Position numbers and translations under genes: made by a program
Source of the DNA: an uncultured virus (IMG/VR IMGVR_UViG_2687453308_000004)
Taxonomy: Duplodnaviria; Heunggongvirae; Uroviricota; Caudoviricetes
Length of the DNA: 64,000 nucleotides
Virus record (IMG/VR): IMGVR_UViG_2687453308_000004
Reading direction: 5' to 3' (one strand)
Notes under the pieces: generated by a model
Seen by the model: only the letters and a program-made list of their open reading frames with translations
What the model was told of the DNA's origin: nothing
The model's database searches: none
Shown: piece after piece, positions 35,963-62,111 of the stretch
How the letters are laid out: each line of letters starts with the position of its first letter
Numbering within the stretch: the first letter of the stretch is position 1

Positions 35963-36223
35963 CTACCATTTCATGACTAAGTTAATTAGTCTGTCCTGTT
36001 CGTCTGTGTTCTCTTCAATCCATTCATCTATTGCTTGGTTGAATAAGTCTGATGCCATATCTAAGTCATTCTCATCTACGACATAAGCATGTTTAATTGG
36101 TACATTGTTCATATCTTTAACTTGTATTGATATGCCCATATGACCTTTTAAAATGAATAGCTTAAAATCGAATCCGTTAACATGAATATTTTTGCGTATG
36201 ATTTCGCCTATTTCGTAATACAT
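35963..36223 (-). CDS. DUF1108-family protein
   Basis: MYYEIG...WIEENTDEQDRLINLVMKW signature. Confidence 0.85.
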   Translation of the reverse strand: MYYEIGEIIRKNIHVNGFDFKLFILKGHMGISIQVKDMNNVPIKHAYVVDENDLDMASDLFNQAIDEWIEENTDEQDRLINLVMKW

Positions 36224-36316
36224 CTTGACTTCCTCCGTTTTTCGTTTTATATTTAACTTGAATTTTATTTCTTAAATGTTTGTTACTGTTACTTGTTGGC
36301 GCAAGTAGCAGTTTTT

Positions 36317-36478
36317 TTATTCTTCATAAAAGTATTCCTTATAGAATATGAATGTTGCGATACTTGCGAATCCTGCAATTGACCATGCTGTAGTGAAGTA
36401 TAGAAACGGCATGAGTACAATCGCTAAGACTGTGAAGCATAATACTGCTAATAGATAGCTTTTATAAATGTTACTCAT
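36317..36478 (-). CDS. DUF1270-family small membrane protein (53 aa)
   Basis: Read by hand: MSNIYKSYLLAVLCFTVLAIVLMPFLYFTTAWSIAGFASIATFIFYKEYFYEE. Confidence 0.85.
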   Translation of the reverse strand: MSNIYKSYLLAVLCFTVLAIVLMPFLYFTTAWSIAGFASIATFIFYKEYFYEE

Positions 36479-36692
36479 TTTCTTTTTTCAACGCCTCCAT
36501 TATTCTCTCGTCTGACAAGCCGTGATAAGGGAATTTTTCTCTAGCTAATTGGACTGGTATTCTGCCTCGAATCGCAATGTAACCTTCGTCTTCAAGCTCT
36601 TTATTCAGTTCTCTTATTATTTGTCCTGCTTTGGATTTAGAAACAGATAAAATTACTGCAAGTTCTTTAGATTGCAAACTATTTTTTATCAT
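36471..36692 (-). CDS. Winged-HTH protein, excisionase-like (73 aa)
   Basis: ELAVILSVSKSKAGQIIRELNKELEDEGYIAIRGRIP pattern; AAGGAGG SD. Confidence 0.65.
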   Translation of the reverse strand: MIKNSLQSKELAVILSVSKSKAGQIIRELNKELEDEGYIAIRGRIPVQLAREKFPYHGLSDERIMEALKKENE

Positions 36693-36762
36693 ATCTATTC
36701 CTCCTTTTTATTTTTGTGTTGTGTATAATTTAGTTATCTCCTAGTGAAAGGAGGTGATAAGT

Positions 36763-36993
36763 ATGGAATTTAATGATTTTCAAAATTTCTTTGGTGAACT
36801 TAGTAATCAAGCCGAAAAAGAATTCGGTGGTGACAGTGACTTTTTTAGAGATAGAATAAATAAGTTGAAAGAAGATGCTCCTGAAAACGTATCTTACGAA
36901 ATTATTTATTCAATAGCTTTATACGAAAGCTTAAAAGCTCAACAAGATATGAAAATTTTGAATACAGTTAAATATCTTTTAGATCGTGACTAG
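36763..36993 (+). CDS. Counter-oriented acidic hypothetical protein (76 aa)
   Basis: TATAAT upstream; AAAGGAGGTG SD before ATG 36763. Confidence 0.75.
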   Translation: MEFNDFQNFFGELSNQAEKEFGGDSDFFRDRINKLKEDAPENVSYEIIYSIALYESLKAQQDMKILNTVKYLLDRD

Positions 36994-37144
36994 CAATATC
37001 CAACAATGATTTGCTCTGAGCATTATTAATTTTTGGATAATCAAAATTTCTAAGTTTAAATCTTGTGTTTTTCTCAATCTTTACAACCTTCCACGTCACA
37101 ACTGCCATTGTGATGAGGAGGGTTGTTTTGTATAGTGCGTTCAT
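36968..37144 (-). CDS. 58-aa hypothetical protein MNALYKTTLLITMAVVTWKV...
   Basis: Read by hand; AAGGAG SD; 3' end overlaps the plus-strand gene. Confidence 0.65.
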   Translation of the reverse strand: MNALYKTTLLITMAVVTWKVVKIEKNTRFKLRNFDYPKINNAQSKSLLDIASHDLKDI

Positions 37145-37199
37145 TTGTTTATGCTCCTTTCATGTATAATGTTGTTATCAACCTAAGGAGGTGATGCTT

Positions 37200-37334
37200 A
37201 TGGCTAAAAGAGGCAAGAAAAACGGTAAGCAATCTACTAGTAGAACTGCTAAACTTGCTAGCAAAGTACTTCGAGATAAACGAAGTGGTAAGAAAGCTAA
37301 AAGTTTGGCTGGTAGCGTGCTTGCTCAATCTTAA
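37200..37334 (+). CDS. Counter-oriented 44-aa highly basic peptide MAKRGKKNGKQSTSRTAKLASKVLRDKRSGKKAKSLAGSVLAQS
   Basis: TATAAT at 37165-37170; AAGGAGGTG SD; stop overlaps the convergent gene's stop. Confidence 0.75.
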   Translation: MAKRGKKNGKQSTSRTAKLASKVLRDKRSGKKAKSLAGSVLAQS

Positions 37335-37534
37335 TCAACCGCTCTTAAACTCTTGTATTTCATTTTCAAGATATAATCAGGGTTTATAATCAGTTGGTTT
37401 TTGTTACCTTGTGCATTTGTGTAGGTCGCAACTACATAAGTGCCGGGTAACTCCATTTCATTACATTCCATTTCACGAAGAGTACAATTTTTTATTCTTG
37501 TATCATCGATTAAATCTACATACTCAAATTCCAT
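37331..37534 (-). CDS. Hypothetical protein (67 aa)
   Basis: AGGAGG SD directly after ant. Confidence 0.7.
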   Translation of the reverse strand: MEFEYVDLIDDTRIKNCTLREMECNEMELPGTYVVATYTNAQGNKNQLIINPDYILKMKYKSLRAVD

Positions 37535-37549
37535 TTGTAGTTCCTCCTG

Positions 37550-38338
37550 TTAAGCAGTTACGTTAGCTTCATAACCGAATTCAGTCATAATTTCATGTAT
37601 TTTCAATCTGCCTTTTTGTGTCCATCTAGTTTGTAAAACTGTGTCTTCTCTACCGTCAGAGCGTACAATTGCTATAGTGTCTGATTCTGTGTAACTCTTG
37701 CCCATGTGTTCTGAGTAAAGCACCCACTGTTTATTTACTTTTCGTTGTAGTCTAGCTTCGTGTAGTAGTTTGTTTAACTTTTGTGCTGATATACCGTAGT
37801 CTGCCGCGATTTGAGTTGTGGCTAATGTGCCAGTTGACTTTAAGATTTCATCTACATAGTCTGCTTTGGGTTTTAGTTCTCCGATTTCTTGTTGTAAAAG
37901 TAAGTTTTGCTCTTTTTCTTTCTTATACTCAGTCAACACTGTAATGATGTAGTCTGGATCTTTTAATGTTTGTTCAATTACATTGTCTGTTGCGTATATA
38001 CCGTGTTTTCGAATAGCTGGTAGGACATCTGATGTTACCCATCGTTTGAATTTCCGAGCGGTTTCTCTAATGTTTTCGTTTTTACTTTGTTTAGAAGCAT
38101 CGAAGATTAAACTGTATAATCCTGATTCGTTGATAATGATCATATTTCTGTTTTGACCTGATGCACTAAATTGGTGCGTCAGCTTGTCCTCGCTATCAAC
38201 ATGATTTCTGATGGCATTGTCTGCCCTTGCATATCCTAAAATTTCAGCAATATCTTTTCCTACAAAATAAGGTTCGTTTTCAATTTCCACTGTTCTTACT
38301 GGTAGCTCTTTAAAATTAAATGTTTGTAATGCTTGCAT
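37550..38338 (-). CDS. ant: Antirepressor, BRO-N + KilA-C/ANT
   Basis: EPYFVGKD, INESGLYSLI, FKRWVTSDVLP and TQKGR motifs. Confidence 0.93.
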   Translation of the reverse strand: MQALQTFNFKELPVRTVEIENEPYFVGKDIAEILGYARADNAIRNHVDSEDKLTHQFSASGQNRNMIIINESGLYSLIFDASKQSKNENIRETARKFKRWVTSDVLPAIRKHGIYATDNVIEQTLKDPDYIITVLTEYKKEKEQNLLLQQEIGELKPKADYVDEILKSTGTLATTQIAADYGISAQKLNKLLHEARLQRKVNKQWVLYSEHMGKSYTESDTIAIVRSDGREDTVLQTRWTQKGRLKIHEIMTEFGYEANVTA

Positions 38339-38353
38339 TGTTCGTTCCTCCTT

Positions 38354-38572
38354 TTAAGATGTTTGTTTGCGTTTCGTGTACTTTGTGGGTAAAAAAATAT
38401 CTCCAATATTTTCGTCAAAAAAATCAGCGATAATAAACATCTCATCATTCTTAAATTGATGCTTTCCTAATTCCTTTAAACGATAACCTTCAGTTGATAT
38501 ATTCAAGAGGTTTGCTAAATCTTCTTGAGTACACTTTCTTTCTTTTCTCAACTTTATTAAATTCCATTGCAT
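38354..38572 (-). CDS. cro: Cro repressor, phi11-like (72 aa)
   Basis: XRE HTH, divergent from cI. Confidence 0.92.
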   Translation of the reverse strand: MQWNLIKLRKERKCTQEDLANLLNISTEGYRLKELGKHQFKNDEMFIIADFFDENIGDIFLPTKYTKRKQTS

Positions 38573-38602
38573 GTTGTCACCTCCCGCTTACAAAACTAAC
38601 TA

Positions 38603-38650
38603 TACACGATACGTGTACTTGAGTCAACATAAAAGTTTGCTTTTCGTGTA
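38603..38650. promoter_or_regulatory. cI-cro operators (15-bp sites)
   Basis: Palindrome TACACGATACGTGTA (38603-38617) and TTTGCTTTTCGTGTA (38636-38650) between the divergent genes. Confidence 0.8.
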
Positions 38651-38713
38651 TTTTTTTGTTGAATACCAAAAATAATTGGGTTATACTATAGGTAAATTTA
38701 AGGAGGTAAGAAA

Positions 38714-39433
38714 ATGGATAAAAAAGAATTAGCGAAATTTATAGGCAATAAAATCAGATACTATAGAACCAAATTGAACTTAACTCAAGATCAACTTGGA
38801 GAAAAACTCAACACTAAAAAGGCTACTATTTCAAATTATGAGACAGGGTACAGAACTCCTAAACAAGATGATTTGTTTGAAATTGCTCATATTTTAAATA
38901 TCAGTATCGATGATTTGTTTCCTACAAGAAATAATAAAAAAAACGACATCACTTCCATATACAGTAAACTCACGCCTCCAAGACAAAAAAACGTACTTAA
39001 CTACGCAAATGAGCAATTAGATGAACAGAATAAAGTCACTTCTATAGATGAATATAAAGAGTCTAAACTAGTATCGTATATTGCATGTGGTGCAACTGGT
39101 GCTGGCATAGGAGAAGAATTATATGATGACATATTGCATGAAGAAGTATTTTTTAAAGAAGACGAAACGCCATCAAATGCTGATTTTTGTATTTTAGTTA
39201 ATGGTGATTCAATGGAACCTATGTTAAAACAAGGAACATACGCTTTTATTAAGAAAGAAGATTCTATTAAAGATGGTACAATTGCACTCGTTGTATTAGA
39301 TGGAGTAAGTCTTATCAAGCGTGTAGATATATGCGAAGACTATATTAATTTGGTATCTCTAAATCCGAAGTATGATGATATCAAAGTCGCTTCGTTTAGT
39401 AATATTAAAGTAATGGGCAAAGTTGTATTGTGA
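38714..39433 (+). CDS. cI: CI repressor, XRE HTH + S24 autopeptidase, phi11-like (239 aa)
   Basis: N-terminal HTH; AG cleavage region; GDSMEP catalytic Ser motif; IKR catalytic Lys motif. Confidence 0.96.
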   Translation: MDKKELAKFIGNKIRYYRTKLNLTQDQLGEKLNTKKATISNYETGYRTPKQDDLFEIAHILNISIDDLFPTRNNKKNDITSIYSKLTPPRQKNVLNYANEQLDEQNKVTSIDEYKESKLVSYIACGATGAGIGEELYDDILHEEVFFKEDETPSNADFCILVNGDSMEPMLKQGTYAFIKKEDSIKDGTIALVVLDGVSLIKRVDICEDYINLVSLNPKYDDIKVASFSNIKVMGKVVL

Positions 39434-39503
39434 TTAACAGCGCCTGTGTGGCGCTTTAATATAAAAGACGTCTATTTCAGCAGTGTTTGAAAGGAAGTTT
39501 ATA

Positions 39504-39686
39504 ATGAAAATAACTAATTGCAAAATAAAAAAAGAAACTATAGTATATGAAGTTTTAACTAGTGGTAATCAACCATTCACTTATGAGTTACCTAAAGATT
39601 TATCGTCACATAATGCGCGTAAATACTTGGAATTTATTTCACAAAAAATAGATGGAGATAAGTTAACCAAAGAAGATTCATTATGA
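39504..39686 (+). CDS. Lysogeny-module hypothetical protein (60 aa)
   Basis: AAAGGA SD before ATG 39504. Confidence 0.65.
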   Translation: MKITNCKIKKETIVYEVLTSGNQPFTYELPKDLSSHNARKYLEFISQKIDGDKLTKEDSL

Positions 39687-39743
39687 TTTTACTAAATAAA
39701 AAAACGCCTACTAGTGTAGACGTTGAATGGTGGTGAGAATTTT

Positions 39744-39869
39744 ATGGTAGATAAAAACAAAAAACAAGAAACTACTCGTAGTAACCCATTAAACAAAAGT
39801 TTTGAAAAGTCAGGCGCCAGCGAAAAATTAAAAAGCACTTTATCAGAAAAAGCTAAGAAAAAAGATTAG
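39744..39869 (+). CDS. 41-aa Lys-rich hypothetical peptide MVDKNKKQETTRSNPLNKSFEKSG...
   Basis: Read by hand; GGTGGTG SD-like; stop overlaps the convergent 204-aa gene stop. Confidence 0.5.
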   Translation: MVDKNKKQETTRSNPLNKSFEKSGASEKLKSTLSEKAKKKD

Positions 39870-40480
39870 TATTCATTCATTAAATATAAATCCAATTTAA
39901 TTTGTTGTTTAAGGTCTACAAGCGTATGTTTAATATACAATTCATCGTTTGACGGTAAATCAGATACTTTGAAATCTTGTCGCTCAACTTCTAGTAAATC
40001 GAAATCGCTACCAGCTGAATTATAGGTTTTAAGTTCACCCTCTTCAATGATTCTGTTTTCAAAGTCTTTTATAACTATAAATACTGGTTTACCGTTGTTA
40101 TTAAACAACTTGTCTCTTTTGTCTAATAAGCTTATACAATCCAATTTCATAAACTTTCTGGTTATATTAATTAACCAGATAATAAATTTAACAATTAAAG
40201 GATTAAATACAAACACTGTTAAAACAAAAATAAATAGAAACAAAATATTTGCTTTTAGACCTGTAAGCAACTGAATTAAATTCAAATTTTTTAAATCAAC
40301 ATTATTAAAAATTATAAAACTATAAAACCATATCAAACATGTTTCAATAGAAAAAATCAATAATACAGGAGTATTGATAACCTTGTTTTTTTCACTAACT
40401 AAACCTATCATTGTTAGATATTTATATGGTATGTAACCTAAAACTCCTGTAAGAAGAAGCGCCCCTAGAAATTGAGTCAT
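39866..40480 (-). CDS. 204-aa membrane protein divergent from int (ORF-C-like)
   Basis: Three N-terminal TM segments and a soluble C-terminus; position typical of Sa2/Sa3 phages. Confidence 0.75.
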   Translation of the reverse strand: MTQFLGALLLTGVLGYIPYKYLTMIGLVSEKNKVINTPVLLIFSIETCLIWFYSFIIFNNVDLKNLNLIQLLTGLKANILFLFIFVLTVFVFNPLIVKFIIWLINITRKFMKLDCISLLDKRDKLFNNNGKPVFIVIKDFENRIIEEGELKTYNSAGSDFDLLEVERQDFKVSDLPSNDELYIKHTLVDLKQQIKLDLYLMNEY

Positions 40481-40605
40481 CTTATCACCTACTTTTTATT
40501 TTATTATAACATATTTAGTACCTAGTACTAAATTTTGGGTAGCCCACCTACCCTTATTATTTTTTACAAATTTACAGAACGTACGTTCCTACAGGAGGTA
40601 TAAAC

Positions 40606-41811
40606 ATGTGGATTGAAAAATTTAAAAACAAAAATAACGAAACTAAATACAGATATTACGAGAAGTACAAAGATCCATACACAGATAAATGGAAGCGCGT
40701 AAGTGTTGTGTTGAACAAGAATACAAAACAATCTCAAAAAGAAGCAATGTTTCGTTTAGAAGAAAAAATAAAAGAAAAACTGAACAACAAGTCGTCAAGC
40801 GAATTAAAAACTTTGACTTTTCACGCGCTATTAGATGAATGGCTTGAATATCATATAAAAACATCAGGTTCAAAGTTGACTACTCTTAATAATATAAAAA
40901 TAAGAATTAGAAACATTAAACGATACAGCTCTGAGAACTTGCTTTTAAACAAACTAGATACAAAATATATGCAGATATTTATTAATAAATTATCAGATAT
41001 CTATTCTCAAAATCAAGTAACCCGTCAACTCGGAGATATGAAAGGAGCTATTAAATATGCAGTTAAATTTTACAATTATCCAAATGAATATTTGTTAACT
41101 AATGTCAAAATTCCTAAAAGAAGAAAAACAATAGAGGATATCGAAAAAGATGAATCTAAAATGTACAACTATTTAGAAATGAACCAAGTCCTACAGATAC
41201 GTGATCATATACTAAATGATAATAAGTTACACAAGCGAAATCGCATTTTAATTGCCAGCATCTTAGAAGTACAGGCTTTAACTGGTATGCGCATAGGAGA
41301 ACTACAAGCACTGCAGGAAAAAGATATAGATTTATTAAACAAAACTATCAATATAACAGGTACAATTCACCGCATTAAATACGAGGAAGGATTCGGATAC
41401 AAAGACACTACAAAGACTATAAGTTCAAAAAGAAGTATCAGCATCAATTCTAGAACCGTAGAAATTTTTAAAAAGATAATACTGGAAAACAAAATGTTGA
41501 AAAGATGGAATTCGAGCTATGTTGACAGAGGGTTCATATTCACAACAAAAAAAGGGAATCCTTTATGTAATAATCAAATCGCCGGTGTGCTTAAGAAAAC
41601 TACAAAAGCTTTAAATATGAATAAGAAAGTTACCACGCACACATTTAGACATACACACATAACTTTATTAGTAGAAATGAATGTTTCTTTAAAAGCAATT
41701 ATGAAAAGGGTAGGACATGTAGATGAAAAAACAACCATTCGCATATATACTCATGTAACTGAAAAAATGGATAGAGAACTAACTCAAAAACTCGAAAACA
41801 TTCCAAGTTAG
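40606..41811 (+). CDS. int: Tyrosine integrase, Sa2int type (401 aa)
   Basis: TGMRIGE, HTFRH, RVGH and IYTH catalytic motifs; adjacent Sa2 att core. Confidence 0.95.
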   Translation: MWIEKFKNKNNETKYRYYEKYKDPYTDKWKRVSVVLNKNTKQSQKEAMFRLEEKIKEKLNNKSSSELKTLTFHALLDEWLEYHIKTSGSKLTTLNNIKIRIRNIKRYSSENLLLNKLDTKYMQIFINKLSDIYSQNQVTRQLGDMKGAIKYAVKFYNYPNEYLLTNVKIPKRRKTIEDIEKDESKMYNYLEMNQVLQIRDHILNDNKLHKRNRILIASILEVQALTGMRIGELQALQEKDIDLLNKTINITGTIHRIKYEEGFGYKDTTKTISSKRSISINSRTVEIFKKIILENKMLKRWNSSYVDRGFIFTTKKGNPLCNNQIAGVLKKTTKALNMNKKVTTHTFRHTHITLLVEMNVSLKAIMKRVGHVDEKTTIRIYTHVTEKMDRELTQKLENIPS

Positions 41812-41819
41812 CTTAAATC

Positions 41820-41840
41820 CGCCCTTTTTTTGCCCTTATA
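41820..41840. promoter_or_regulatory. Probable integrase arm-type sites (GCCCTT repeats)
   Basis: gccctttttttgccctt between the int stop and the core; same motif at 46140-46175. Confidence 0.55.
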
Positions 41841-41853
41841 TTTTTTACAAGCT

Positions 41854-43881
41854 TTATAAAACGCTTGAGAACACTGGCGTTAGAGCTTTTCTTGAAATAA
41901 ACATATCATCATAATGTGATGGTTCAAATAACATCTGTACAATCAAAGGCTTCATGTTCTTAACAATATCATCTAAATGGTTATCTAAAATTGGTGACAC
42001 TGCTTTTAAATCATTAAGAAATGGCTCCCATTTGCCTAAAGTATTATCTAATTCTTCTAATTTAGTTTTAATATAATTACAAGTTACATTAGGAATCAGG
42101 GACAAAAATTCTTTCTTTTTTACATTTAACATTTCAATTGCATGTCTTAAATTCTTACGTATTTTGGGAATTGTATTAATCAAATATTTTATTACATCAA
42201 CAATTTTCGATGCATATTCATCATATATACTTTGAACAAAGTCTGCTATTTTTTTAATACCATCATCGATATGGTCTTTTAATATTTTCATTTTTCTTCC
42301 TAAATAATTAGAAGGTATAACTAGACCCTGTACCATATTTTCGCCGCTACAATTAATTTGGAAATTCCCATCTAAAATTGTTGCATCTTGTTGTTTCATA
42401 ATACTTCTAATTTCTGCAATTTGCCTACCATAAATATCATTTTGATTTTTTATTCGCTCTATATTCTGTTTCACTACTTTCAAATGTTTCATCATTTCTT
42501 CAGATACTCCATCTCTGAAGTCGTGATCTATATTTTTGAAAATTTCTAAAATTTCATTATCTATACTATCATACACTTTTTCTATAAAAGATTTTATACC
42601 TTTAAACAACTCATTAATTCTTTCTTTTAATGCATCCAATGCAAAATCAGGTAATAAGTGTTTAACAGCACTAATACTTTCTATTGTTTCATCTGCAACT
42701 TCTTCAAGTGAGTTTATTTTACTAATTAAAGTTCTTTCCATTTCTTCTAATTGAAATAAGTTAATCTTATCCTTAAATCCTTCTGATAATTGTTGCTTTC
42801 TATCTGCAAAATTTTTATTTTCATTTTCTGAGATGTTAAAACTTTCATTTAAAAAGATTACGCATTCTGCTAACATACCACTAGTTTCACCAGTAATCAG
42901 TTTACTCAACGCATCAAGATTTTCTAAATTAAGTTTAATTAAAGTTCCTCTTCCAGAACGTGCAATCGAATCCCCTGTCCAAACATTTATCGGAATTCGC
43001 CCATCCATATCTAATGTTATGTTAATAGTCTTTTTTACTTTTTTTCCATTTTTAATTTCTGTATCTTTTACCGACTTAATTTTGATTAGTGGTACAGTAT
43101 CGTATGTGTTGTCTTTTCTATTTAACTTCCTTTTATAACCTACATGGCTGTCTATTAAAGCATCTAACCTGGGCACACCATCACTAATGTTAACGCGTTT
43201 TCCTGGCATATCTTTGATGAATGGATCTTGTAACCATGTTAATAAATCGTTGGTACTATTAAAACTAATCATATTATCAAAGCGTGGTCTAGCAAATTTC
43301 TGCCAAGCAGCATAAGGTACCATTGCTGGGTCAGTAGCAACAACTTTTTCATTTGGATGTTTCGCTCCTTGATATTTTGCTCCTGCACCGCCTTCCGAAT
43401 TACCGCCATCCGCCACAATGGTTTTGTTTTTGTAATTATTTGGACTAACACCATATTTTTGTGTAAAGTTATACTTACTTAATTTATTAGCGTCATTTAG
43501 TTTGTCTCTATATAAATCTGCAAATTCGTCTGATTGCTTAAGATAATCCGTTGACTTATTACTATTATCCATTAATTTCGCATTTTGTAACCAATCATCT
43601 CCGATATCTAAAGATTTTAATGGATTATTAGGGTTTATTGCCTCATTAGATGTTCCTTGATAAATCATGGTTTGTTCACCAGTTGGTTTTCCTTTTTCAT
43701 CCAACAATTCATAAATTTTTAAATCTGAGGCACCTTTTTTATTTTTATTTCCATTATCATTATATTCATCAACCTGCTTAAATCTTTTTCCGTTAACTGT
43801 AAAATCATTATCTTTATTGATGTCTTGATAAACCCAGTAACTACTCAATTCTGTTAAGTCTCTATCATTAATTTTATTCAT
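41854..43881 (-). CDS. Host SA1320-like protein truncated by prophage 1: lipase-like N-terminus plus helical C-terminus; last 13 aa phage-derived
   Basis: YQGT, DWLQN and GNSEGG alpha/beta-hydrolase motifs; att core encodes PSHYDDMFI near the end; start overlaps the lipoprotein stop. Confidence 0.8.
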   Translation of the reverse strand: MNKINDRDLTELSSYWVYQDINKDNDFTVNGKRFKQVDEYNDNGNKNKKGASDLKIYELLDEKGKPTGEQTMIYQGTSNEAINPNNPLKSLDIGDDWLQNAKLMDNSNKSTDYLKQSDEFADLYRDKLNDANKLSKYNFTQKYGVSPNNYKNKTIVADGGNSEGGAGAKYQGAKHPNEKVVATDPAMVPYAAWQKFARPRFDNMISFNSTNDLLTWLQDPFIKDMPGKRVNISDGVPRLDALIDSHVGYKRKLNRKDNTYDTVPLIKIKSVKDTEIKNGKKVKKTINITLDMDGRIPINVWTGDSIARSGRGTLIKLNLENLDALSKLITGETSGMLAECVIFLNESFNISENENKNFADRKQQLSEGFKDKINLFQLEEMERTLISKINSLEEVADETIESISAVKHLLPDFALDALKERINELFKGIKSFIEKVYDSIDNEILEIFKNIDHDFRDGVSEEMMKHLKVVKQNIERIKNQNDIYGRQIAEIRSIMKQQDATILDGNFQINCSGENMVQGLVIPSNYLGRKMKILKDHIDDGIKKIADFVQSIYDEYASKIVDVIKYLINTIPKIRKNLRHAIEMLNVKKKEFLSLIPNVTCNYIKTKLEELDNTLGKWEPFLNDLKAVSPILDNHLDDIVKNMKPLIVQMLFEPSHYDDMFISRKALTPVFSSVL
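41895..41923. other. att core at int end of prophage 1 (attL), ACCATCACATTATGATGATATGTTTATTT on minus strand
   Basis: Exact 29-bp direct repeat with 46017-46045; matches the phiSa2 core as recalled. Confidence 0.93.
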
Positions 43882-44788
43882 CTTCAAATGCTCCAAACGA
43901 CACTACTTTCTTATCATCAAAACGAGCTTTTTTTGTGCCAATAAGTTTATTTCCTAATTGAGTAGTTATAGTATTCTTGATTGGCATATCTTTTGTTCTT
44001 TCAATTTTCTCGGATAAATCTATTACATTATTTATCTTTTCTTTTCTATTTTTTTTATCATTCGTACTAAACAACGTTGCTACTGTATTACTATTAGCAG
44101 TATAATCTAACTCTTTTCTAGCTCGTTGCATACCCTCTTTAAATTCTTTATCATTTTTATGAATCAACGGTTCGTAATATTTACGATATTCTTTTAAGTT
44201 TCTTGATAAATATGTGATATAAAAGTATTCATTTTGATATCCAACGTTTTGTGTCTTGTTAATTGCCTCTTTTGTAAAGCCTGTATATTGATATTTCTTT
44301 TCATTTTCTTTGAAGAATTTATATAAGTTATCATACTTTTCTTTTTGCGCTCGATATTCAAAGCCACTCAGCACTGTACCCACCATCATACTCATATCAT
44401 CACCGTTGTCATTACTACGCATTGATCCTTTTTGATGGATGGCATCTTTGTACAAAGGTAGACTTGCATTAAATACAATGCCATGATCTTCGCAATGCAC
44501 ATAAACTTCTACACCATCATCTTTACCTACAACATTTGTAGCTTTAACTTTTAGTCCAAAGTTATCTTTAAAGAATTGTTCACCTACTTTTTCAAATTCT
44601 TTACGATGCTTCTTCGCAAATTCAATCGCATCTTTTTCTGCAGGTGGTTGGAAGCCTTGTCCTACATATTTTGAAGCTTCCATTTCTTCTGGTACTGATT
44701 TTGTTTCATTGTTGGATTCGTTATTGGTAGTTGAACATCCTGATAGTATTATCGTTGCTATTAAGATTAGTTTAATTCTTTTAAACAT
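43874..44788 (-). CDS. Tandem lipoprotein (DUF1672-like, 304 aa)
   Basis: LSGC lipobox; Y.GQGFQP and VLSGFEYRA motifs. Confidence 0.85.
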   Translation of the reverse strand: MFKRIKLILIATIILSGCSTTNNESNNETKSVPEEMEASKYVGQGFQPPAEKDAIEFAKKHRKEFEKVGEQFFKDNFGLKVKATNVVGKDDGVEVYVHCEDHGIVFNASLPLYKDAIHQKGSMRSNDNGDDMSMMVGTVLSGFEYRAQKEKYDNLYKFFKENEKKYQYTGFTKEAINKTQNVGYQNEYFYITYLSRNLKEYRKYYEPLIHKNDKEFKEGMQRARKELDYTANSNTVATLFSTNDKKNRKEKINNVIDLSEKIERTKDMPIKNTITTQLGNKLIGTKKARFDDKKVVSFGAFEDE

Positions 44789-44845
44789 AGCCCATCTCCC
44801 ATTTATGTGTTTGTTTAGAATATAGAGAAATTAGCTGATTTCAAG

Positions 44846-45751
44846 TCATTCGACCTCAATCCTTATAGACTCATTATCACTGTAATTAACTCGATTAGTG
44901 CTAATAGTAGATTTTGCTAGTTGTAAAAATATTTTCGTATTTTCAAAATTAAGGTGTAACTTTTTCGTACTTTCAGACAAATCTAAAACATCATCTAATT
45001 TTTTGTCCTTTGAAAAGTTACTACTTCTCGAAAACAATGTTGTATGTACTTCTATTGCAGCTTTATAGCCTACTCCTTTCCTTGCTTGTTTCATACCTTT
45101 TTTAAAATTCAGATTATTTTTCTTTATTAGGGGTTCGTAATATTTCCTATATTCTTGGAGCGTCGGTATATTAGCAACTATATAAAAATATTCATTTTCA
45201 TATCCACTATTTTGTGTTTTGTTAATTGCCTCTTTAGTAAATCCTGTATATTGGTATTTCTTTTCATTTTCTTTTAAAAATTTATATAAATTATCATACT
45301 TTTCTTTTTGCGCTCGATATTCAAAGCCACTCAACACTGTACCAACTAAAGTACTCATATCATCGCCTTTATCCTCACTTCTTAATGAGCTATCACTCTC
45401 AATTATTGATTTGTCAAATGGAATACTTGCATTAAATACGATGTCGTGGTCATCACAATGCACGAATACTTCTACACCGTCGCCACTACCTACAACATTT
45501 GTAGCTTTAACTTTTAGTCCAAAGTTATCCATAAAAAATTGTTCGCCACGTTTAGCAATTTTATCTTTATGCTTCTTCGAAAATTCAATCGCATCTTTTT
45601 CTGCAGGTGGTTGGAAGCCTTGTCCTACATATTTTGAAGCTTCCATTTCTTCTGGCACTGATTTTGTTTCATTGTTGGATTCGTTATTGGTAGTTGAACA
45701 TCCTGATAGTAGTATCGTTGCTATTAAGATTAGTTTTGTTCTTTTAAACAT
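44846..45751 (-). CDS. Tandem lipoprotein (DUF1672-like, 301 aa)
   Basis: LSGC lipobox; paralogue of 43874-44788. Confidence 0.85.
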   Translation of the reverse strand: MFKRTKLILIATILLSGCSTTNNESNNETKSVPEEMEASKYVGQGFQPPAEKDAIEFSKKHKDKIAKRGEQFFMDNFGLKVKATNVVGSGDGVEVFVHCDDHDIVFNASIPFDKSIIESDSSLRSEDKGDDMSTLVGTVLSGFEYRAQKEKYDNLYKFLKENEKKYQYTGFTKEAINKTQNSGYENEYFYIVANIPTLQEYRKYYEPLIKKNNLNFKKGMKQARKGVGYKAAIEVHTTLFSRSSNFSKDKKLDDVLDLSESTKKLHLNFENTKIFLQLAKSTISTNRVNYSDNESIRIEVE

Positions 45752-45840
45752 AGCTCATCACCCATTTATGTGTTTGTAAAACTTTTATGTTAAAAAAACT
45801 ACTTATTCTCAAAGAAAACAAGTAGCATTTAATAAATTAC

Positions 45841-46056
45841 TTAGTATACAGCTAGTTTTTCTAATTGTTCTTTAACTTGAATTAAGTTTGACCGTATTAG
45901 AGAGGCAGATTGATCCATCGTTTGAATTGCTTGTCCTTCATTTTCGTTCAAGCCATTACAAACAACTTCAAACTGTTGTGCCATTTGATCAAGACGTGCA
46001 TGAGCTTGTGTGTTTAAAATAAACATATCATCATAATGTGATGGTAAAGTGGTCAT
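45841..46056 (-). pseudogene. 3' fragment of a paralogous SA1320-like gene cut off by prophage 2, with in-frame phage-derived ATG
   Basis: Begins MTTL-PSHYDDMFI, the same core-encoded peptide and frame as in 41854-43881. Confidence 0.85.
46017..46045. other. att core at lysis end of prophage 2 (attR)
   Basis: Identical 29 bp to 41895-41923; host coding sequence on the left, phage arm on the right. Confidence 0.93.
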
Positions 46057-46777: not shown

Positions 46778-48232
46778 CTAAATCGTGCTAAACTTACCAA
46801 AACTGCTTATTCTATTACCTGCCTTGTCTACCTCTCCTGTAGCAATATAACGACGTTGTCCACTATTAGCAATATAAGTAATCCATCTATAGCCATTGAT
46901 ACAATATGCGCCGTCATATTTGATTGTTGCGTTATTAGGTAATACACCAGTAATTCTTGAATTAGTTGAATAGCCGTCCCTTACGTTATTACCTTTAACA
47001 TTGGCAACTGTGTAATTACCAGCCTCTTTTTTATAAGGCACATTATTCTTATCAAGTGTATAACCTGCTGGCACTGGTGGATTTTTTTGGTTTTTAGCTG
47101 ATGTTTTAACATTACCAGCTACCAAACCACCTATAGGCTTACCATGAATCGCACCAGCTATTAATTTAGAATACAAGTCATAATTCTTCTTAATCCAATC
47201 CATATCTTTTTTATTAGTAATAAAACCTAATTCAGATAAACGATAATTGATATTTATTTCTGCTGATACATTAACGTTCAGTAAATCATTACGAGGTGTT
47301 ACACCTCTTATTTGTCCTAAGTTATTTTTAATAACATCTTGTATACTTTTATCAATAGTATCTGCATTGAATTGACTTGAAATAATAACATGCCCACCAC
47401 TTGCACTTTCTCCTGCTGCGTCTAAATGAATCTCTAGAACAATGTCATACCCCTGTGATTTAACCCAATATAAGCCATAATCTTTATTATTTCCTACATT
47501 AACACCGTAAGCAGTATCTTGATACATATCTTGTGATTGACTTGAGCCACCATATAATGCAACTTCGTGACCTGCATGTCTTAAATACTTAGCGATATTT
47601 GGTGTTATATATTTACGGATAAAATCACGTTCATTTGTTCCGTTTCCGACTGCTCCAGGATCGTTATAACCATGACCGGCTACAAGCATAATTTTTTTAG
47701 GTTTAATTACTGCTTGCTTTTTGGCAGTTGCTTGCTTAATAACGCTTTTAGCTTTATCTCCAACACTTACTTTATCTGGGAAATTTAATCTAATAAAATA
47801 CATTGGGTCATCGTAATAATGAACATGTCTTGTAACGGTTTCGGGACCCCAACCAGGTTGCGCAACGCCATTTGTCCAACCTTTACCATTCCAATTTTGG
47901 CCAAACGATGTGAAAGTGTTTAGATTAGCGCTCTCAACAATTTCAACATGTCCAGCTCCGCCACCATACTTTGACGGGAAAACGACAATGTCCAACTTTT
48001 GCGGTAAAAAGCTATCATAGTTTTTAATTATTTGCCCGTATTTTTCAATCCTTGCTTTATTATCAAATGGAATATTATAAGCGTATAAACCTTGTAACCT
48101 TTCGCCTGTTGCTATCATAAAAAACATATTTGCGTAATCGTAACACTGAAATCCATAAAACAAATCAGGATTGAACTGCTTCCCTAATGAATTATCAAAC
48201 CATTTTTCTGCTTGGTTTTTTGTTATCAACAT
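46778..48232 (-). CDS. Endolysin, CHAP + Amidase_3 + SH3b (484 aa)
   Basis: QCYDY/GHV CHAP; VAGHG..DPGA, LEIHLD and ELGFI Amidase_3 motifs. Confidence 0.95.
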   Translation of the reverse strand: MLITKNQAEKWFDNSLGKQFNPDLFYGFQCYDYANMFFMIATGERLQGLYAYNIPFDNKARIEKYGQIIKNYDSFLPQKLDIVVFPSKYGGGAGHVEIVESANLNTFTSFGQNWNGKGWTNGVAQPGWGPETVTRHVHYYDDPMYFIRLNFPDKVSVGDKAKSVIKQATAKKQAVIKPKKIMLVAGHGYNDPGAVGNGTNERDFIRKYITPNIAKYLRHAGHEVALYGGSSQSQDMYQDTAYGVNVGNNKDYGLYWVKSQGYDIVLEIHLDAAGESASGGHVIISSQFNADTIDKSIQDVIKNNLGQIRGVTPRNDLLNVNVSAEININYRLSELGFITNKKDMDWIKKNYDLYSKLIAGAIHGKPIGGLVAGNVKTSAKNQKNPPVPAGYTLDKNNVPYKKEAGNYTVANVKGNNVRDGYSTNSRITGVLPNNATIKYDGAYCINGYRWITYIANSGQRRYIATGEVDKAGNRISSFGKFSTI

Positions 48233-54845: not shown

Positions 54846-55670
54846 CTACCTATAAATAAAAGGAAACTTAAATGTAGTTTTAATATCACTGACGTCTCCT
54901 TTAATCTTAAATTCATTTTTACCTGGCGCTAATGTTATAATGCCTCTATTTGTATCAATTCCCACTCTATTTATATCTCGATATGCATACACACCATCTA
55001 AAACAAAATCAGTGTTTTTATCTATACTTTTGTTGTACTTAAAAATATCACCTGTTGTATAGTTAACCAGTTCAAATCCTCCACTCGCATTTAAATTAAT
55101 TAATATTTTCAAATCGTGCTTGAATCGTGGATTTATCGTATCAGTAGAACCGTTCCAAATAGTAAATTGATTTGATGTATGAGTATATTTAGGTGTGAAA
55201 TCAAGAGGAATTCCATTTTCAAACATCCAATTAGAGTCGAATAAGAACTCGCTATCGGTCCAATTAACTGATTCAGAATACCCTTTATAAACATTTAAAC
55301 TTACTTCAATTTCAGTTGAAGAACCATCTTTTAAATTAGATGTAACATTAGCTGTATTCACTGCATATTTAACACCATGCATTTGAGAAGTAATAACATA
55401 ATAAGGATGTCTGCGATTAAACACAGATCTAAACCAATGCTCAAATAAATTTAAATCTATAACATCTATACCATCATAGCCAAACCTTAATACTAATGAA
55501 AAAGGCGCAAAACTAATTGCGCCCGGTAAAATACCATCTACTCCGTTAATAGTTACACTGTTATCATTGGTGTTTGGACTTTCAGCCCTTGCATCTAAAA
55601 ATATAAGCTGATTAAAATCTGTTATTACTTCTTCCTTGTAACCATCTATGATTTTTACAAAAGATTGCAT
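54846..55670 (-). CDS. Distal tail protein (Dit)
   Basis: 274 aa after tape measure; ITLAPGKNEF motif. Confidence 0.87.
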   Translation of the reverse strand: MQSFVKIIDGYKEEVITDFNQLIFLDARAESPNTNDNSVTINGVDGILPGAISFAPFSLVLRFGYDGIDVIDLNLFEHWFRSVFNRRHPYYVITSQMHGVKYAVNTANVTSNLKDGSSTEIEVSLNVYKGYSESVNWTDSEFLFDSNWMFENGIPLDFTPKYTHTSNQFTIWNGSTDTINPRFKHDLKILINLNASGGFELVNYTTGDIFKYNKSIDKNTDFVLDGVYAYRDINRVGIDTNRGIITLAPGKNEFKIKGDVSDIKTTFKFPFIYR

Positions 55671-58600
55671 TAATTAGTCAAACCTCCCATATAATTATTT
55701 GCATTTGCTCTATGCCCACTTTGTTTTGACAATATTTTTTCTAAACCTCTAATTGCATCATTAGAACCTAAGTTATTATCCTGAGAAGAAACAGTTTGAA
55801 TCAATGCATCTGTTAATTTATTTCCTTTATCACTTAACATAACAATTTGTTTCAACAATTTTTCAACTGTTGAAGTATCATTATTTACAGTGATGTTATT
55901 TGGCTTGCCATCCATACCGATGATGCGCATAACCTGTTCAGTTAATTGAATTGCTCGTTTACGTCTAGTTAAAGGGATAACCATCTCCTGTTTATCTCCT
56001 TCACCCACTTCAGCAAGTTGATGCTTTGTAATCAAACCACCATTCGCATATCTTCTTGGACCACTTGGAGACCAACCACCTCTTGGGTTAAACTGTGAGC
56101 GCCAATATCTGTTGTTAAAGAACGCTAATAACTGATCGTAACCACTATATATATTGTTGTGACCTCTAACAGCATAATGTCTAAATGTTTGTGGGATATA
56201 TTGAAGCAATCCTTTTGCTGGATTGCCCTGTAAAACGTTGATGTCTCTAAGCGCACTAGATTGAGTTATACCTGCATTTCCTCCTGATTCGTGTTGAATC
56301 AAGCTAATAATATTTCCTACATCACCCGAAGTAACATTAACACCCATTCGTTTTGCTGCACGACGTATATCGCCTGCCCAAGCAGATGCAGCCTTATTAA
56401 CACCTGAACCACTTCGAACGCCACTACCTTTAAGTGACTTCAACCATTTTTCTGGATCTTTAGCTGTATCATTCCCTGGATGTGACCCTTGCATCAATTG
56501 GAAATGTAAGTGTGCTCCTCTAACGAAATTACCTGTAGCACCTGATTTCCCTATCAGTTGACCAGCTTTAATACGTTGGCCTTGTCTTGCTAATTGCTTA
56601 GATAAATGCATATACCAGTTCCATTCATTAGCACCAGTCTTAATTTGTATAGAATTACCGCCACCGTAATCAGTCCATACCTTATCTGCTATACCACCTT
56701 TAACGGCATAAACGTTTGTTCCAGAAGGCATACCAAAGTCTATACCATAGTGACGACCGCCATTAAAGTTAAGTCCACCTGTGTAGCGTCCAAATCTTTG
56801 CCAGATTGGATATTCAAATAGATAGCTTCCATCGCCTCCACCACCGAAATCTTCAAACCACGATTTTACTTTGTCTACTAATTTCTTTTTGAGCAATGAG
56901 TATGCGCCTTTAGCTATTTTTACTGTAGCGTTAGCTCCGCCTCCAAAATTAATATTTAAACCTGACATTACTTTATTTACTAGTTTCCCTGGATGTTGTA
57001 CGTAATCCCACACATCGCCGATTTTATCGCCTAACCAAGATGCACCATCTTTGATTTTATCGCCTGCTGCTTCAACCATTTCTTCTGCACCTTTTTTGAT
57101 ATTATGCGCTGTGTTTTTAGCTGTAGCTCCAAATTCTCCTGCTTTTTTACCTATATTACCTTTAAGTTGGTCTAGCCAATCTTTCTTTTTCGTACCTCCA
57201 TGAAACTTTGGTAAAACACCCATACGCTGTAACTTCAGAGTGTCATTAGCATTTATTACGCTATCCCCAACTCCTAGTGGAACAACCACATCTCGTCCTT
57301 GGGGTGCATGGAATGTTCCGTCAGCCCTGTGAATTACTTCTTGAACTCCACCACCTGGGGCGTTTCCAGAACCTCTATCATTTAATACAGCAAATGTCGG
57401 TTGCGTTAATGCTCCCGAATTATCGGTAGCTACACCCTTTCCTGCTAAAGTACCAGTAGACAATGTAGGTATTGGCTTGATGAGATTTTTATCAGTAATG
57501 GCTTTAGATATTTTATTAATACCGCCAATCATGCTATTCAAACCGCCAATAGCTTTATTAGCAACATTTTTACCTAAATCAGCCGCAGCTCTTCCCATGT
57601 CTTTACCAATATCTCTAATCCAATCATATGTTTTGGATAGCCATTTTCTAAAACCATTAAATACTGATTTAGCGTTAGACCATGCCGAACTTGAAATTGC
57701 ATCAAAACGATCGTGGGCTCTTGAATACATATCCCCAGTCCAATCTTTTAAAGATTTGTATGAGTTACTAAACCATTTCGATGTTCCTTTCCAAACGGAT
57801 TTTGCATTCGACCAAGCTGTACTAGAAATATTATCCCATTTCGCGCGAGATTTATTAGCCATATCCGTTAGCCAGCCCTTTGCACTTTTATATGCATTGC
57901 TAAACCATTTTGATGTGCCTCTCCAAATAGATTTTGAATGCGCCCAAGCTTTATCTGAAGCATCTGAATACTTTTGCTTAGTTTGATTGTAAATACTTCC
58001 TGTTGTCGATTTAACAGATTGCCAAGCTTTTCCAAACCATTTACCAGTACTATTAGCTATAGCCTTAGTGTGGTATCCTACAGAACTTTTGGCTGAGCTC
58101 CAACCTGAACTTAATTTGCTTGGAATCCCTTTGATTCCGCTCCACATTTTTTTCATTTCGCCGCCAAAATGATTAGCATTTCTGCCCATTTTACTAAAGG
58201 CTTCGCCAGTTTTACTTTTTACGCCGTCCCAAGCATTTCCAAACCATTTCTTTATATTTTCTCTGTTTCTACGAGCTGTTTCTTCTTGTTCTTTAGCGTA
58301 TTTATCGCTTTTTTTCTTTTGGTCTTCTCTAAAGTTAGACCACCAACTTTTAAGGCCATTCCACCACTTTTCAGTATTTTTATATACACGTCCACTGGAT
58401 AAATCCATTTCTTTATCAATATCTTTATTTTGCTTTTTAACAACATCTACTACAGCATCTTTTTTAGATTTTGCTTTTCTTACTTCATCTTTATGTCTTT
58501 GATCAGCAATAGCTAACAATTTATCTTTTTCAGACTTAGAAAGGTTGACGTTATTTTTTATAGCAATGACATCATCTTCATATTGCTTGTCCACTTCTTT

Positions 58601-61870: not shown

Positions 61871-61883
61871 ATTAACCTCCTTT

Positions 61884-62111
61884 CTAGCTTCCAAAAAGTT
61901 TTCTTAAATCCGTACCTGTAATGACTTTTTGTTCACTTTGTTTTTCTTCAGTCTCTTCTTTATTCTCTTCATTAAGTATTTCTAAAAGTTTTACATACGG
62001 CTGTTTTCTGACTTCAGTTAATGTCCACCCATACTGCTCCATACAGAAACGTTGTATTTTCTTAATGTTCGATAAAATGTCTTTTATTGAGATTGTTCTT
62101 CTGTCTTTCCC
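61884..62111 (-). CDS. Tail assembly chaperone -1 frameshift extension
   Basis: G GGA AAG at 62105-62111; -1 frame open to TAG at 61884 (contains YGWTLTEVRKQPY). Confidence 0.8.
   Translation of the reverse strand, partial: GKDRRTISIKDILSNIKKIQRFCMEQYGWTLTEVRKQPYVKLLEILNEENKEETEEKQSEQKVITGTDLRKLFGS

Follow-up and report, generated by a model that had tools for sequence, protein, structure and literature searches.

A staphylococcal gene cluster lying between two prophages most likely encodes a candidate antibacterial lipase toxin and its lipoprotein antidotes

We analyzed a 64,000-nucleotide stretch of DNA from an uncultured virus (IMG/VR record IMGVR_UViG_2687453308_000004; hereafter the window), in which a 4.2-kb island at positions 41854-46056 is enclosed by two prophages. 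Judged by its genes, the island is part of the staphylococcal DUF1672/'SA1320' cluster, and this cluster is most likely a candidate antibacterial lipase toxin together with its lipoprotein antidotes. On the minus strand it holds, in order, the 3′ tail of a first toxin paralogue (paralogue 1), two DUF1672 lipoprotein genes and a second toxin paralogue (paralogue 2). The whole chain that we propose is that SA1320 proteins may form a third family of reverse type VII lipase toxins, one that has no partner protein, with DUF1672 immunity and with Sa2-type phages truncating the toxin gene. We regard this chain in its entirety as somewhat probable, and hold its first links with higher confidence.

Paralogue 2 is an open reading frame (ORF) of 680 amino acids at 41854-43896, on the minus strand. 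Its sole family match was the NCBIfam model NF047388, 'SA1320 family protein' (E 2e-58), and a Pfam scan of the same ORF returned nothing meaningful. The match covers model positions 1-601 of 644 with 198.2 bits, where the curated cut-off is 230; intact S. aureus-type proteins (including L005:8718-10898, P0134 and P0190) reach 193-221 bits, also below that cut-off, and Bacillales relatives reach 608-636 bits. Because of these scores, automatic annotation would leave the SA1320 namesakes as 'hypothetical protein', and the names in the source records agree. Among 1.84 billion representative sequences we found 122 relatives, about 40 of them full-length (650-730 amino acids, 19-47% identical), and phmmer and profile searches link the window ORF, the intact S. 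aureus-type proteins and the Bacillales proteins to one another.

The first 320 or so residues of paralogue 2 (42937-43896) appear, from predicted fold and conservation, to be a class-3 lipase-like domain, with a GNSEGG nucleophile elbow followed by Asp and His. In a family alignment of 43 rows these residues are nearly invariant: Ser168 in G-N-S-x-G-G is kept in 42 rows, Asp218 in YDxLT in 41 and His252 in NHTGY in 42. An AlphaFold2 model of an intact relative, computed from the 43-sequence alignment (predicted local distance difference test, pLDDT, 83.7; predicted template modeling score, pTM, 0.85), places an alpha/beta domain at residues 1 to about 320 and long helices at residues 325-721, the protein ending in a helix (663-691), a turn (692-696) and a second helix (697-721). 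When residues 10-302 of the model were compared with 48,161 chains by VIA-align, the best match was Lip2 (3o0d; Z 12.7, 205 residues, root-mean-square deviation 3.7), and further matches were a feruloyl esterase (1uwc, 12.6), SMG1 (4zrd, 12.6) and a phospholipase A1 (7x0d, 12.5). The top Foldseek matches were lipases and a lipase effector of the type VI secretion system (T6SS; 9cys), with probabilities of 0.94-1.0. A PDB sequence search with the single protein gave no match, and a PDB profile search gave coiled-coil and designed-helix matches, a T6SS lipase effector (E 0.19) and EsxA (E 0.21), and nothing stronger. According to the model, the N-terminal domain very probably has a hydrolase fold.

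These data agree with much of what the original prediction, made from the letters of the window, had read in this protein. The YQGT, DWLQN and GGNSEGG motifs are present in the 680-residue ORF, the proposed alpha/beta-hydrolase is a predicted class-3 lipase fold with a near-invariant Ser-Asp-His set, and the long helical C-terminal half is present in the model. The absence of a signal peptide also holds, the N-terminus showing no hydrophobic stretch when judged by eye rather than by a signal-peptide program.

Two reverse families of type VII toxins serve as the standard of comparison. According to the available sections of PMC10730906, TslA of S. aureus, with its TilA (DUF576) lipoproteins and TlaA1/TlaA2, constitutes the Tsl1 family; TslM, with TilM (DUF1433) and the WXG100 protein TlaM, constitutes the Tsl2 family in the available part of PMC13560087 (August 2026), which counts these two reverse families as the only ones known. 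A Tsl1-like protein of 455 amino acids, encoded beside DUF576 genes in another staphylococcus, matches a 450-residue ORF and a frameshifted copy in the genome nearest to the window (G001), which we used as the synteny reference in place of the window's own assembly; TslA and TslB are described as such a 450-residue and frameshifted pair in the accessible text of PMC10730906. In an hhalign comparison, the SA1320 family profile aligned with the Tsl1-like protein at a probability of 97.0% (E 8.8e-11) over 153 columns that include GxSxGG and YDPLT, and the NCBIfam SA1320 model itself matches this protein (E 1.6e-19). The SA1320 lipase head is, as these profile alignments suggest, a distant homologue of the TslA lipase, and the parallel to TslA drawn earlier is thereby borne out for the lipase core. 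The N-terminal position and the GxSxG Ser-Asp-His set of reverse type VIIb lipase toxins are likewise found in silico. SA1320 proteins lie outside the Tsl1 family proper, since only the 153 lipase-core columns align and the neighbors are DUF1672 and not DUF576 genes.

The stretch at 41896-42936 encodes the helical C-terminal part of paralogue 2 (about residues 321-667), which would, by the model of the intact relative, comprise everything except the last helix-turn-helix. Residues 166-667, which include the helical stretch, are 97.6-98.2% identical to the modeled intact relative, and residues 1-165 vary, being 56-84% identical between alleles. Overall, S. aureus-type alleles are 55-91% identical, with the last ~90 residues near-identical. 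Polymorphic toxins show this pattern, in which a variable head is joined to a constant trafficking end. In the last turn a Leu is kept in 40 of the 43 rows; four positions on stands a small residue (G in 14, A in 15, S in 12 rows), and after it come A or S and I or V. This Leu stands five residues before the Gly of the NEGQA segment in the tail of paralogue 1, which the original prediction had likened to WEGQA of EsxA. That likeness did not survive: the position is Gly in only 14 of the 43 rows and no alignment with EsxA could be obtained, so that NEGQA was rejected as a WXG motif.

Upstream of paralogue 2, on the same strand, lie two DUF1672 lipoprotein genes, matching the tandem and partly divergent lipoproteins that had been predicted. 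The proximal one (43874-44788; Pfam E 4.4e-142, lipobox LSGC) is the candidate cognate immunity gene, and the second (44846-45751; Pfam DUF1672, E 1.4e-125) encodes a divergent protein, the two being 65% identical. The lipobox G-C was invariant in all rows of a 16-row alignment. The stop codon of the proximal gene overlaps the likely toxin ATG (ATGAATAA), with GGAG 9 nt upstream, and the true start of paralogue 2 is probably this ATG at 43881 and not the TTG of the ORF list. Since the lipoprotein stop overlaps the likely toxin start, the translational coupling suggested in the original prediction is plausible. The DUF1672 model (pLDDT 83.2) matches PDB 4qpv (E 1.6e-39, 56% identical, TM-score 0.96), an uncharacterized DUF1672 protein of S. 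aureus Mu50 (SAV1486) solved in 2014; no other convincing structural relative of the DUF1672 model was found, the next being DUF5037 (E 9e-3).

The pairing of the two genes is conserved across loci. In each of eight loci from a class sample of 401 genomes, the SA1320 gene has a DUF1672 gene directly upstream in the same orientation. A pattern search with an 18-row sub-alignment yielded 41 further loci in 37 genomes of about 20 Bacillales genera; 32 of these hold full-length ORFs, 30 of them with upstream sequence, and in 29 of those 30 the DUF1672 gene ends 0-30 nt before the toxin start. The sole full-length SA1320-like ORF with no DUF1672 gene upstream belongs to a 0.9-Mb metagenome-assembled genome (G439, locus L089), which has six EssB/YukC matches. 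Tandem DUF1672 copies are common across the loci, and 14 N-terminal toxin fragments at 11 loci each stand behind a DUF1672 gene of their own.

At L051, L057, L059, L060, L061, L065, L068, L069, L071, L078 and L083 we observed one or two upstream cassettes consisting of a DUF1672 gene and the first 90-240 codons of an SA1320-type gene. Such cassettes look like orphan toxin-head/immunity modules, and a similar remnant of 73 amino acids lies downstream in G001.

DUF1672 genes are kept beside toxin remnants in L005, L047 and L048. Divergent immunity-type genes that adjoin the toxin gene and persist where the toxin has been lost are a trait of reverse type VIIb toxins, and the genomic record suggests that it is present here. 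We consider it likely that SA1320 and DUF1672 form a toxin-immunity pair.

Comparative genomics also connects the cluster with type VII secretion. EssB/YukC (PF10140) was detected above its cut-off in 34 of the 37 carrier genomes and in 45 of the 401 class-sample genomes, a contrast that overstates the association, for the two samples differ in taxonomy, include related genomes and have at least two genomes in common. Near-full-length SA1320 matches occur in 9 genomes of the class sample, and six of these nine have EssB (G001, G092, G397, G205, G073 and G106; the G106 copy has stops); a seventh, G193, has no EssB match and a split SA1320 gene. In Halobacillus litoralis, Bhargavaea beijingensis and Cerasibacillus terrae the DUF1672/SA1320 array lies 0.3-1.3 kb from esxA-yukD-yukC(-essC). 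The esaA end of the type VII locus is flanked in a further staphylococcus (L047) by a DUF1672 gene with a toxin remnant, and at L048 such a pair closes an island of genes for WXG100, DUF5081, a TNT-domain toxin, Imm59 and DUF4176. In two staphylococci the neighbors of the SA1320 gene are Tsl1-like, DUF576, WXG100, YwqH-like and DUF5344 genes. These genomic associations argue that SA1320 toxins are probably exported by the type VII system. A separate observation at L047 (13663-15733, genome G235) is a lipase gene with a YSIRK signal that is split into three ORFs (Pfam Lip_C pieces) beside the DUF1672 gene and remnant.

Several results weigh against a type VII lipase toxin. Every Foldseek E-value for a lipase fold exceeds 1e-3. 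Among the 43 aligned proteins Pfam LXG matched none, WXG100 matched one (E 2e-3) and DUF3958 matched one; the tail compared with staphylococcal EsxA gave a BLASTP E-value of 8.5 and an hhalign probability of 2.2%; and in hhalign the C-terminal domains of SA1320 and Tsl1-like proteins failed to align. The profile match and the WxG/LxG turn that mark the WXG100/LXG superfamily are both missing from the family, and the WXG/LXG-like bundle expected in the original prediction was detected neither by sequence nor by fold search. Fold matches of the helical half are generic (Dps-like bundles, Z 10-12; EspB, Z 10.3) and all fall below about 13, the stated noise level of VIA-align for helical models; a relation to EspB was rejected as lying within this noise. 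An ESM Atlas search with the helical half gave no usable match. No small downstream ORF is conserved in the 32 full-length loci and no helper is encoded in the window or in G001, whereas both characterized reverse toxin families need one or two helpers, as stated in the available text of PMC10730906 and PMC13560087; Lap- or WXG100-like helper genes were not found as partners, the WXG100 genes found being confined to the type VII loci that adjoin three of the arrays. Such a position next to type VII core genes is exceptional (3 of 41 loci). Two staphylococcal genomes that are 99% complete (G153 and G373) hold intact genes for 732 amino acids with no EssB match, and one Natronobacillus and one Sporolactobacillus carrier genome also gave no EssB match. 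Both G153 and G373 retain a Tsl1-like gene.

Some of these results would suit a lipase toxin with lipoprotein immunity whose export is not of type VII, the helical half being instead a ClyA/XaxA-like membrane-inserting or self-translocating module, or the signal for another route. The lack of a conserved helper gene, the lack of an LXG/WXG signature and the intact genes in genomes without EssB fit such a protein, and Foldseek lists XaxA, AhlB, ClyA, Hbl-B, YaxA and SmhB for the helical half. However, these ClyA-superfamily rows have probabilities of 0.15-0.38 and TM-scores of about 0.15, and the ClyA/XaxA-type candidates were rejected. EssB is present in nearly all carrier genomes, three genera have arrays that border on esxA, remnants are found within or next to type VII loci, and the lipase core has its homologue in an established family of type VII substrates. 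We therefore consider export by another route unlikely, though it is the best of the alternatives.

Less probable still is a housekeeping envelope esterase whose substrates or regulators would be the DUF1672 lipoproteins and whose role might be, for instance, the remodeling of lipids or lipoproteins. The enzyme-lipoprotein pairing is conserved, neither family has an assigned function, and a signal-less cytoplasmic protein encoded beside exported lipoproteins need not be a toxin. Polymorphic alleles with a conserved tail, tandem divergent lipoproteins, and frequent fragment cassettes and pseudogenes are not what a housekeeping enzyme would be expected to show, and neither are the patchy distribution (near-full-length matches in 9 of 401 genomes) and the tolerance of truncation by thousands of strains; polymorphic toxin-immunity loci typically have such features.

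An intracellular anti-phage lipase of the abortive-infection type, with a coiled-coil sensor, appears very improbable. The gene is a phage attachment site, and PADLOC weakly matched LmuB within the helical part of the window ORF (E 2.5e-5, 20.7 bits); the intact relative gave no PADLOC match, so the LmuB hit looks like coiled-coil composition and was rejected as such. The lipase has a lipoprotein as its constant partner, and since this partner is exported it is in keeping with a target outside the cell; no conserved defense genes were found nearby.

The interpretation of SA1320 as a type VII toxin draws its closest parallel from TslA (PMC10730906, available sections), which like SA1320 has no signal peptide, a homologous N-terminal lipase core, a helical C-terminal half and a polymorphic N-terminal region, with an immunity-type lipoprotein gene directly upstream in tandem divergent copies. 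The TslA lipase was modeled on Lip2 (3o0d), the same structure that is the best VIA-align match for SA1320, and TslA export depends on a Leu at a helix-turn-helix (PMC10730906, available text), which compares with the last-turn Leu of SA1320. Unlike TslA, SA1320 has DUF1672 and not DUF576 as its candidate immunity partner, has no helper genes, and has ~720 and not ~450 amino acids. Its helical region of ~400 residues does not align with that of Tsl1, and the SA1320 gene is the Sa2 attachment site.

The Tsl2 family, as presented in the accessible part of PMC13560087, shares with SA1320 the reverse layout, an N-terminal lipase with GxSxG Ser-Asp-His, several paralogues per genome and orphan immunity genes; it differs in its small membrane immunity proteins encoded divergently, its one required WXG100 helper and its unstructured interdomain linker. 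Neither SA1320 nor DUF1672 is mentioned in the available text and supplement of that article. The T6SS Tle-type effectors (PDB 9cys/7ubz) resemble our reading of SA1320 in being interbacterial class-3-like lipases with dedicated immunity outside the cytoplasm, but they belong to another secretion system and another phylum, and the similarity is only slight (Foldseek E 5.7e-2; profile E 0.19).

The toxin gene is also the site at which the prophages are integrated. A 28-base core, CCATCACATTATGATGATATGTTTATTT, occurs in exactly two copies in the window (41895-41922 and 46017-46044, both on the minus strand), where no chance match is expected. The first copy, within the PSHYDDMFI codons of paralogue 2, is attL of the left prophage (prophage A, Sa2 type), and the second is attR of the right prophage (prophage B). 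Just past the core, at 41854-41894, paralogue 2 diverges from intact relatives and ends in 13 phage-derived codons (SRKALTPVFSSVL) and a stop; these 13 residues replace 58 in the intact proteins, as had been foreseen for Sa2 integration. In the model of the intact relative, the core lies at the start of helix 663-691.

Prophage A carries a tyrosine integrase gene at 40606-41811 on the plus strand (Pfam Phage_integrase, E 8.5e-27), directed to attL. Over positions 36000-41853 the identity to phiSa2wa_st22, tp310-1 and phiSa2wa-st5.7 is 95-96%, and int and attL are marked in the records of these phages. Prophage A fills the window down to about position 764, with a 490-residue ORF at 764-2236 and a tape-measure ORF of 1154 residues at 13602-17066. 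Prophage B directs to attR an endolysin gene of 484 codons (46778-48232, minus strand; Pfam CHAP, Amidase_3 and SH3_5) and has a tape-measure ORF of 2074 residues at 55670-61894, with tail and holin genes also lying on this side of the island; its integrase and the far junction of prophage A lie outside the window. The two prophages have a single 241-base match, at 85% identity, in common. Free phage genomes such as R4 and YMC/09/04/R1988 hold both phage arms joined at one place, which fits the use of one type of attachment site by both prophages. Each junction has the identical core inside an SA1320-type ORF and is flanked by the end of a siphovirus prophage, the integrase end at one and the lysis end at the other; these are the features of Sa2-type attachment sites.

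Between the integrase and repressor genes of prophage A we also observed an ORF of 204 amino acids (39866-40480, minus strand) with hydrophobic N-terminal segments. Moron or exclusion genes are often located between integrase and repressor genes.

The tail ORF of the island (45841-46056, minus strand) encodes 71 amino acids, contains NENEGQA and matches model positions 584-644 of NCBIfam SA1320_fam (E 8.4e-6). It bears exactly the 58 residues seen in intact relatives: its last 58 codons and stop (45841-46016) are identical to the C-terminus of the intact 726-residue protein of G001 and would encode the terminal helix-turn-helix left by prophage B. A terminator-like hairpin (45798-45826, minus strand), with a 13-pair stem and then a T run, follows the ORF. 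Both lipoprotein genes stand downstream of the tail, whose other side abuts the lysis end of prophage B, and hence the tail cannot be the piece cut off by prophage A.

The order of genes in G001 explains this arrangement. Its prophage-free locus comprises a two-component system, a DUF1672 gene, the gene for the intact 726-residue protein, two DUF1672 genes, the 73-residue remnant and a further DUF1672 gene, and the N-terminus of the remnant (L005:6503-6724; MEHLKMNKINDRDL...) is that of the 680-residue window ORF. In DNA alignments, window positions 43756-46045 are 87.3% identical to the G001 tail, the two lipoprotein genes and the remnant start, whereas 41892-44707 match the upstream lipoprotein gene and the intact gene at 90.5%, which is paralogue similarity. 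The gene order and these alignments lead us to conclude that the locus ancestrally had two toxin paralogues, each with a core, and that both are occupied here. On this synteny, the 71-residue tail is the 3′ end of upstream paralogue 1 cut by prophage B, and paralogue 2 is cut by Sa2-type prophage A, its own tail lying beyond the window.

The alternative, that a single prophage split one gene and that 45841-46045 is the severed end of the 41854-43896 ORF, is suggested by the core common to both pieces and by an uninterrupted body-plus-tail gene in another strain, but is as good as untenable and refuted for this window by gene order, given the tail upstream of the lipoproteins against the lysis end of a prophage with a different tape measure (2074 vs 1154 residues), and the G001 order of toxin 1, lipoprotein, lipoprotein and toxin 2 remnant, with a remnant whose N-terminus is that of the window ORF. 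The original prediction had taken the tail for that severed end: the NEGQA-bearing ORF with its terminal helix-turn-helix is real, but its assignment to the 680-residue ORF falls. Likewise, the rejoined protein of ~720 residues that it envisaged exists as a natural uninterrupted gene in a run from another strain and is not the arrangement of this genome. Its observations are thus confirmed in part, and its interpretation is in part supported.

Sequencing runs were consistent with the two junctions. In two DNA runs from two studies, contigs cross both of them (41500-44309; 45682-46410/46469). No contig in the DNA runs spans the whole island, and because the assemblies break within the paralogous lipoprotein genes these runs do not prove its contiguity. 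In run X18, an RNA library from a strain without these prophages, a contig of 2750 letters joins position 46016 to 41895 in an uninterrupted gene, the body of the window allele (41895-44309, one differing letter) being connected through the core to an identical tail (45682-46016). An intact allele with this body and tail exists in another strain, although the X18 contig is no proof of its transcription. In run X15, an RNA library from a lysogen, contigs reach the attachment core (at 41921 and 46029) from the phage sides and continue into other sequence; they could be the other two junctions of a double lysogen, or the excised attP form.

Truncation at this site has been reported before. In the available text of PMC7010278, integration of Sa2 phages deprives an ORF in the DUF1672 cluster of its 3′ end and leaves an ORF of ~62 amino acids, the role of the target being left open, and 'interrupted SA1320' has served as a clone marker (PMC8826912, available sections). 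The central core is the same, with 29 bp given there (PMC7010278) and 28 identical bp found here, and a small leftover ORF stands beside the prophage in both. The target was called 'lipoprotein_7 domain' or hypothetical protein in the accessible parts of these two articles, whereas here two paralogous sites are occupied. That Sa2 phages truncate this ORF is already published; the window differs in that two tandem paralogous sites are occupied at once by two different prophages.

The prophages would fit a wider pattern. Reversible inactivation of a secreted factor by a temperate staphylococcal phage that integrates within its gene is known for hlb (Sa3 phages) and geh (phage L54a). Unlike in hlb and geh, only the last 58 codons of SA1320 are replaced, and a loss of function would follow from the proposed role of the hairpin.

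Taken together, these findings suggest the following mechanism. The lipoprotein and toxin genes would be co-translated, and the helical C-terminus would direct the toxin to the type VIIb system, which would export it without a dedicated helper. Once released, the lipase would attack the membrane lipids of neighboring bacteria, while the producer would be shielded by DUF1672 lipoproteins that sit on the outer face of its membrane and bind the lipase domain, further divergent copies shielding it from the alleles of other strains. Sa2-type phages would integrate where the last hairpin begins, leaving the lysogen a lipase with 13 foreign residues in place of the last 58. This truncated lipase would probably not be exportable, immunity would be kept, and excision would reverse the loss. 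We judge it an even matter whether the truncation blocks export. The phage lands, from the allele comparison, in the most constant stretch of a polymorphic gene, and the 90%-identity cluster of the truncated allele has 3083 member sequences.

A bolder version of the model may be put forward tentatively. SA1320 might represent a third class of reverse type VIIb toxins and the first to be helper-less, with Lap-like helices fused in cis within the 400-residue stalk and with DUF1672 as a new immunity family; cassettes of head and lipoprotein might let strains swap heads by recombination; and Sa2/Panton-Valentine leukocidin-type phages might land on the invariant export hairpin, disarming the host reversibly and sparing its immunity, here twice in tandem paralogues.

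Our search of the available papers and supplements found no description linking SA1320 or DUF1672 to type VII secretion. A prophage in the SA1320 gene of commonly studied strains, if present, may explain why the protein has been overlooked. Sa2 phages include the Panton-Valentine leukocidin phages (PMC7010278, available text). If the proposed chain is true, it would give a function to the SA1320 family, to the DUF1672 lipoproteins (4qpv) and to the target gene of Sa2 phages, which they interrupt in thousands of S. aureus genomes. SA1320 would then be a third reverse-architecture substrate family, one without helpers, which would bear on how the type VII system recognizes its cargo, and an interbacterial weapon would join the staphylococcal genes that are switched off by lysogeny.

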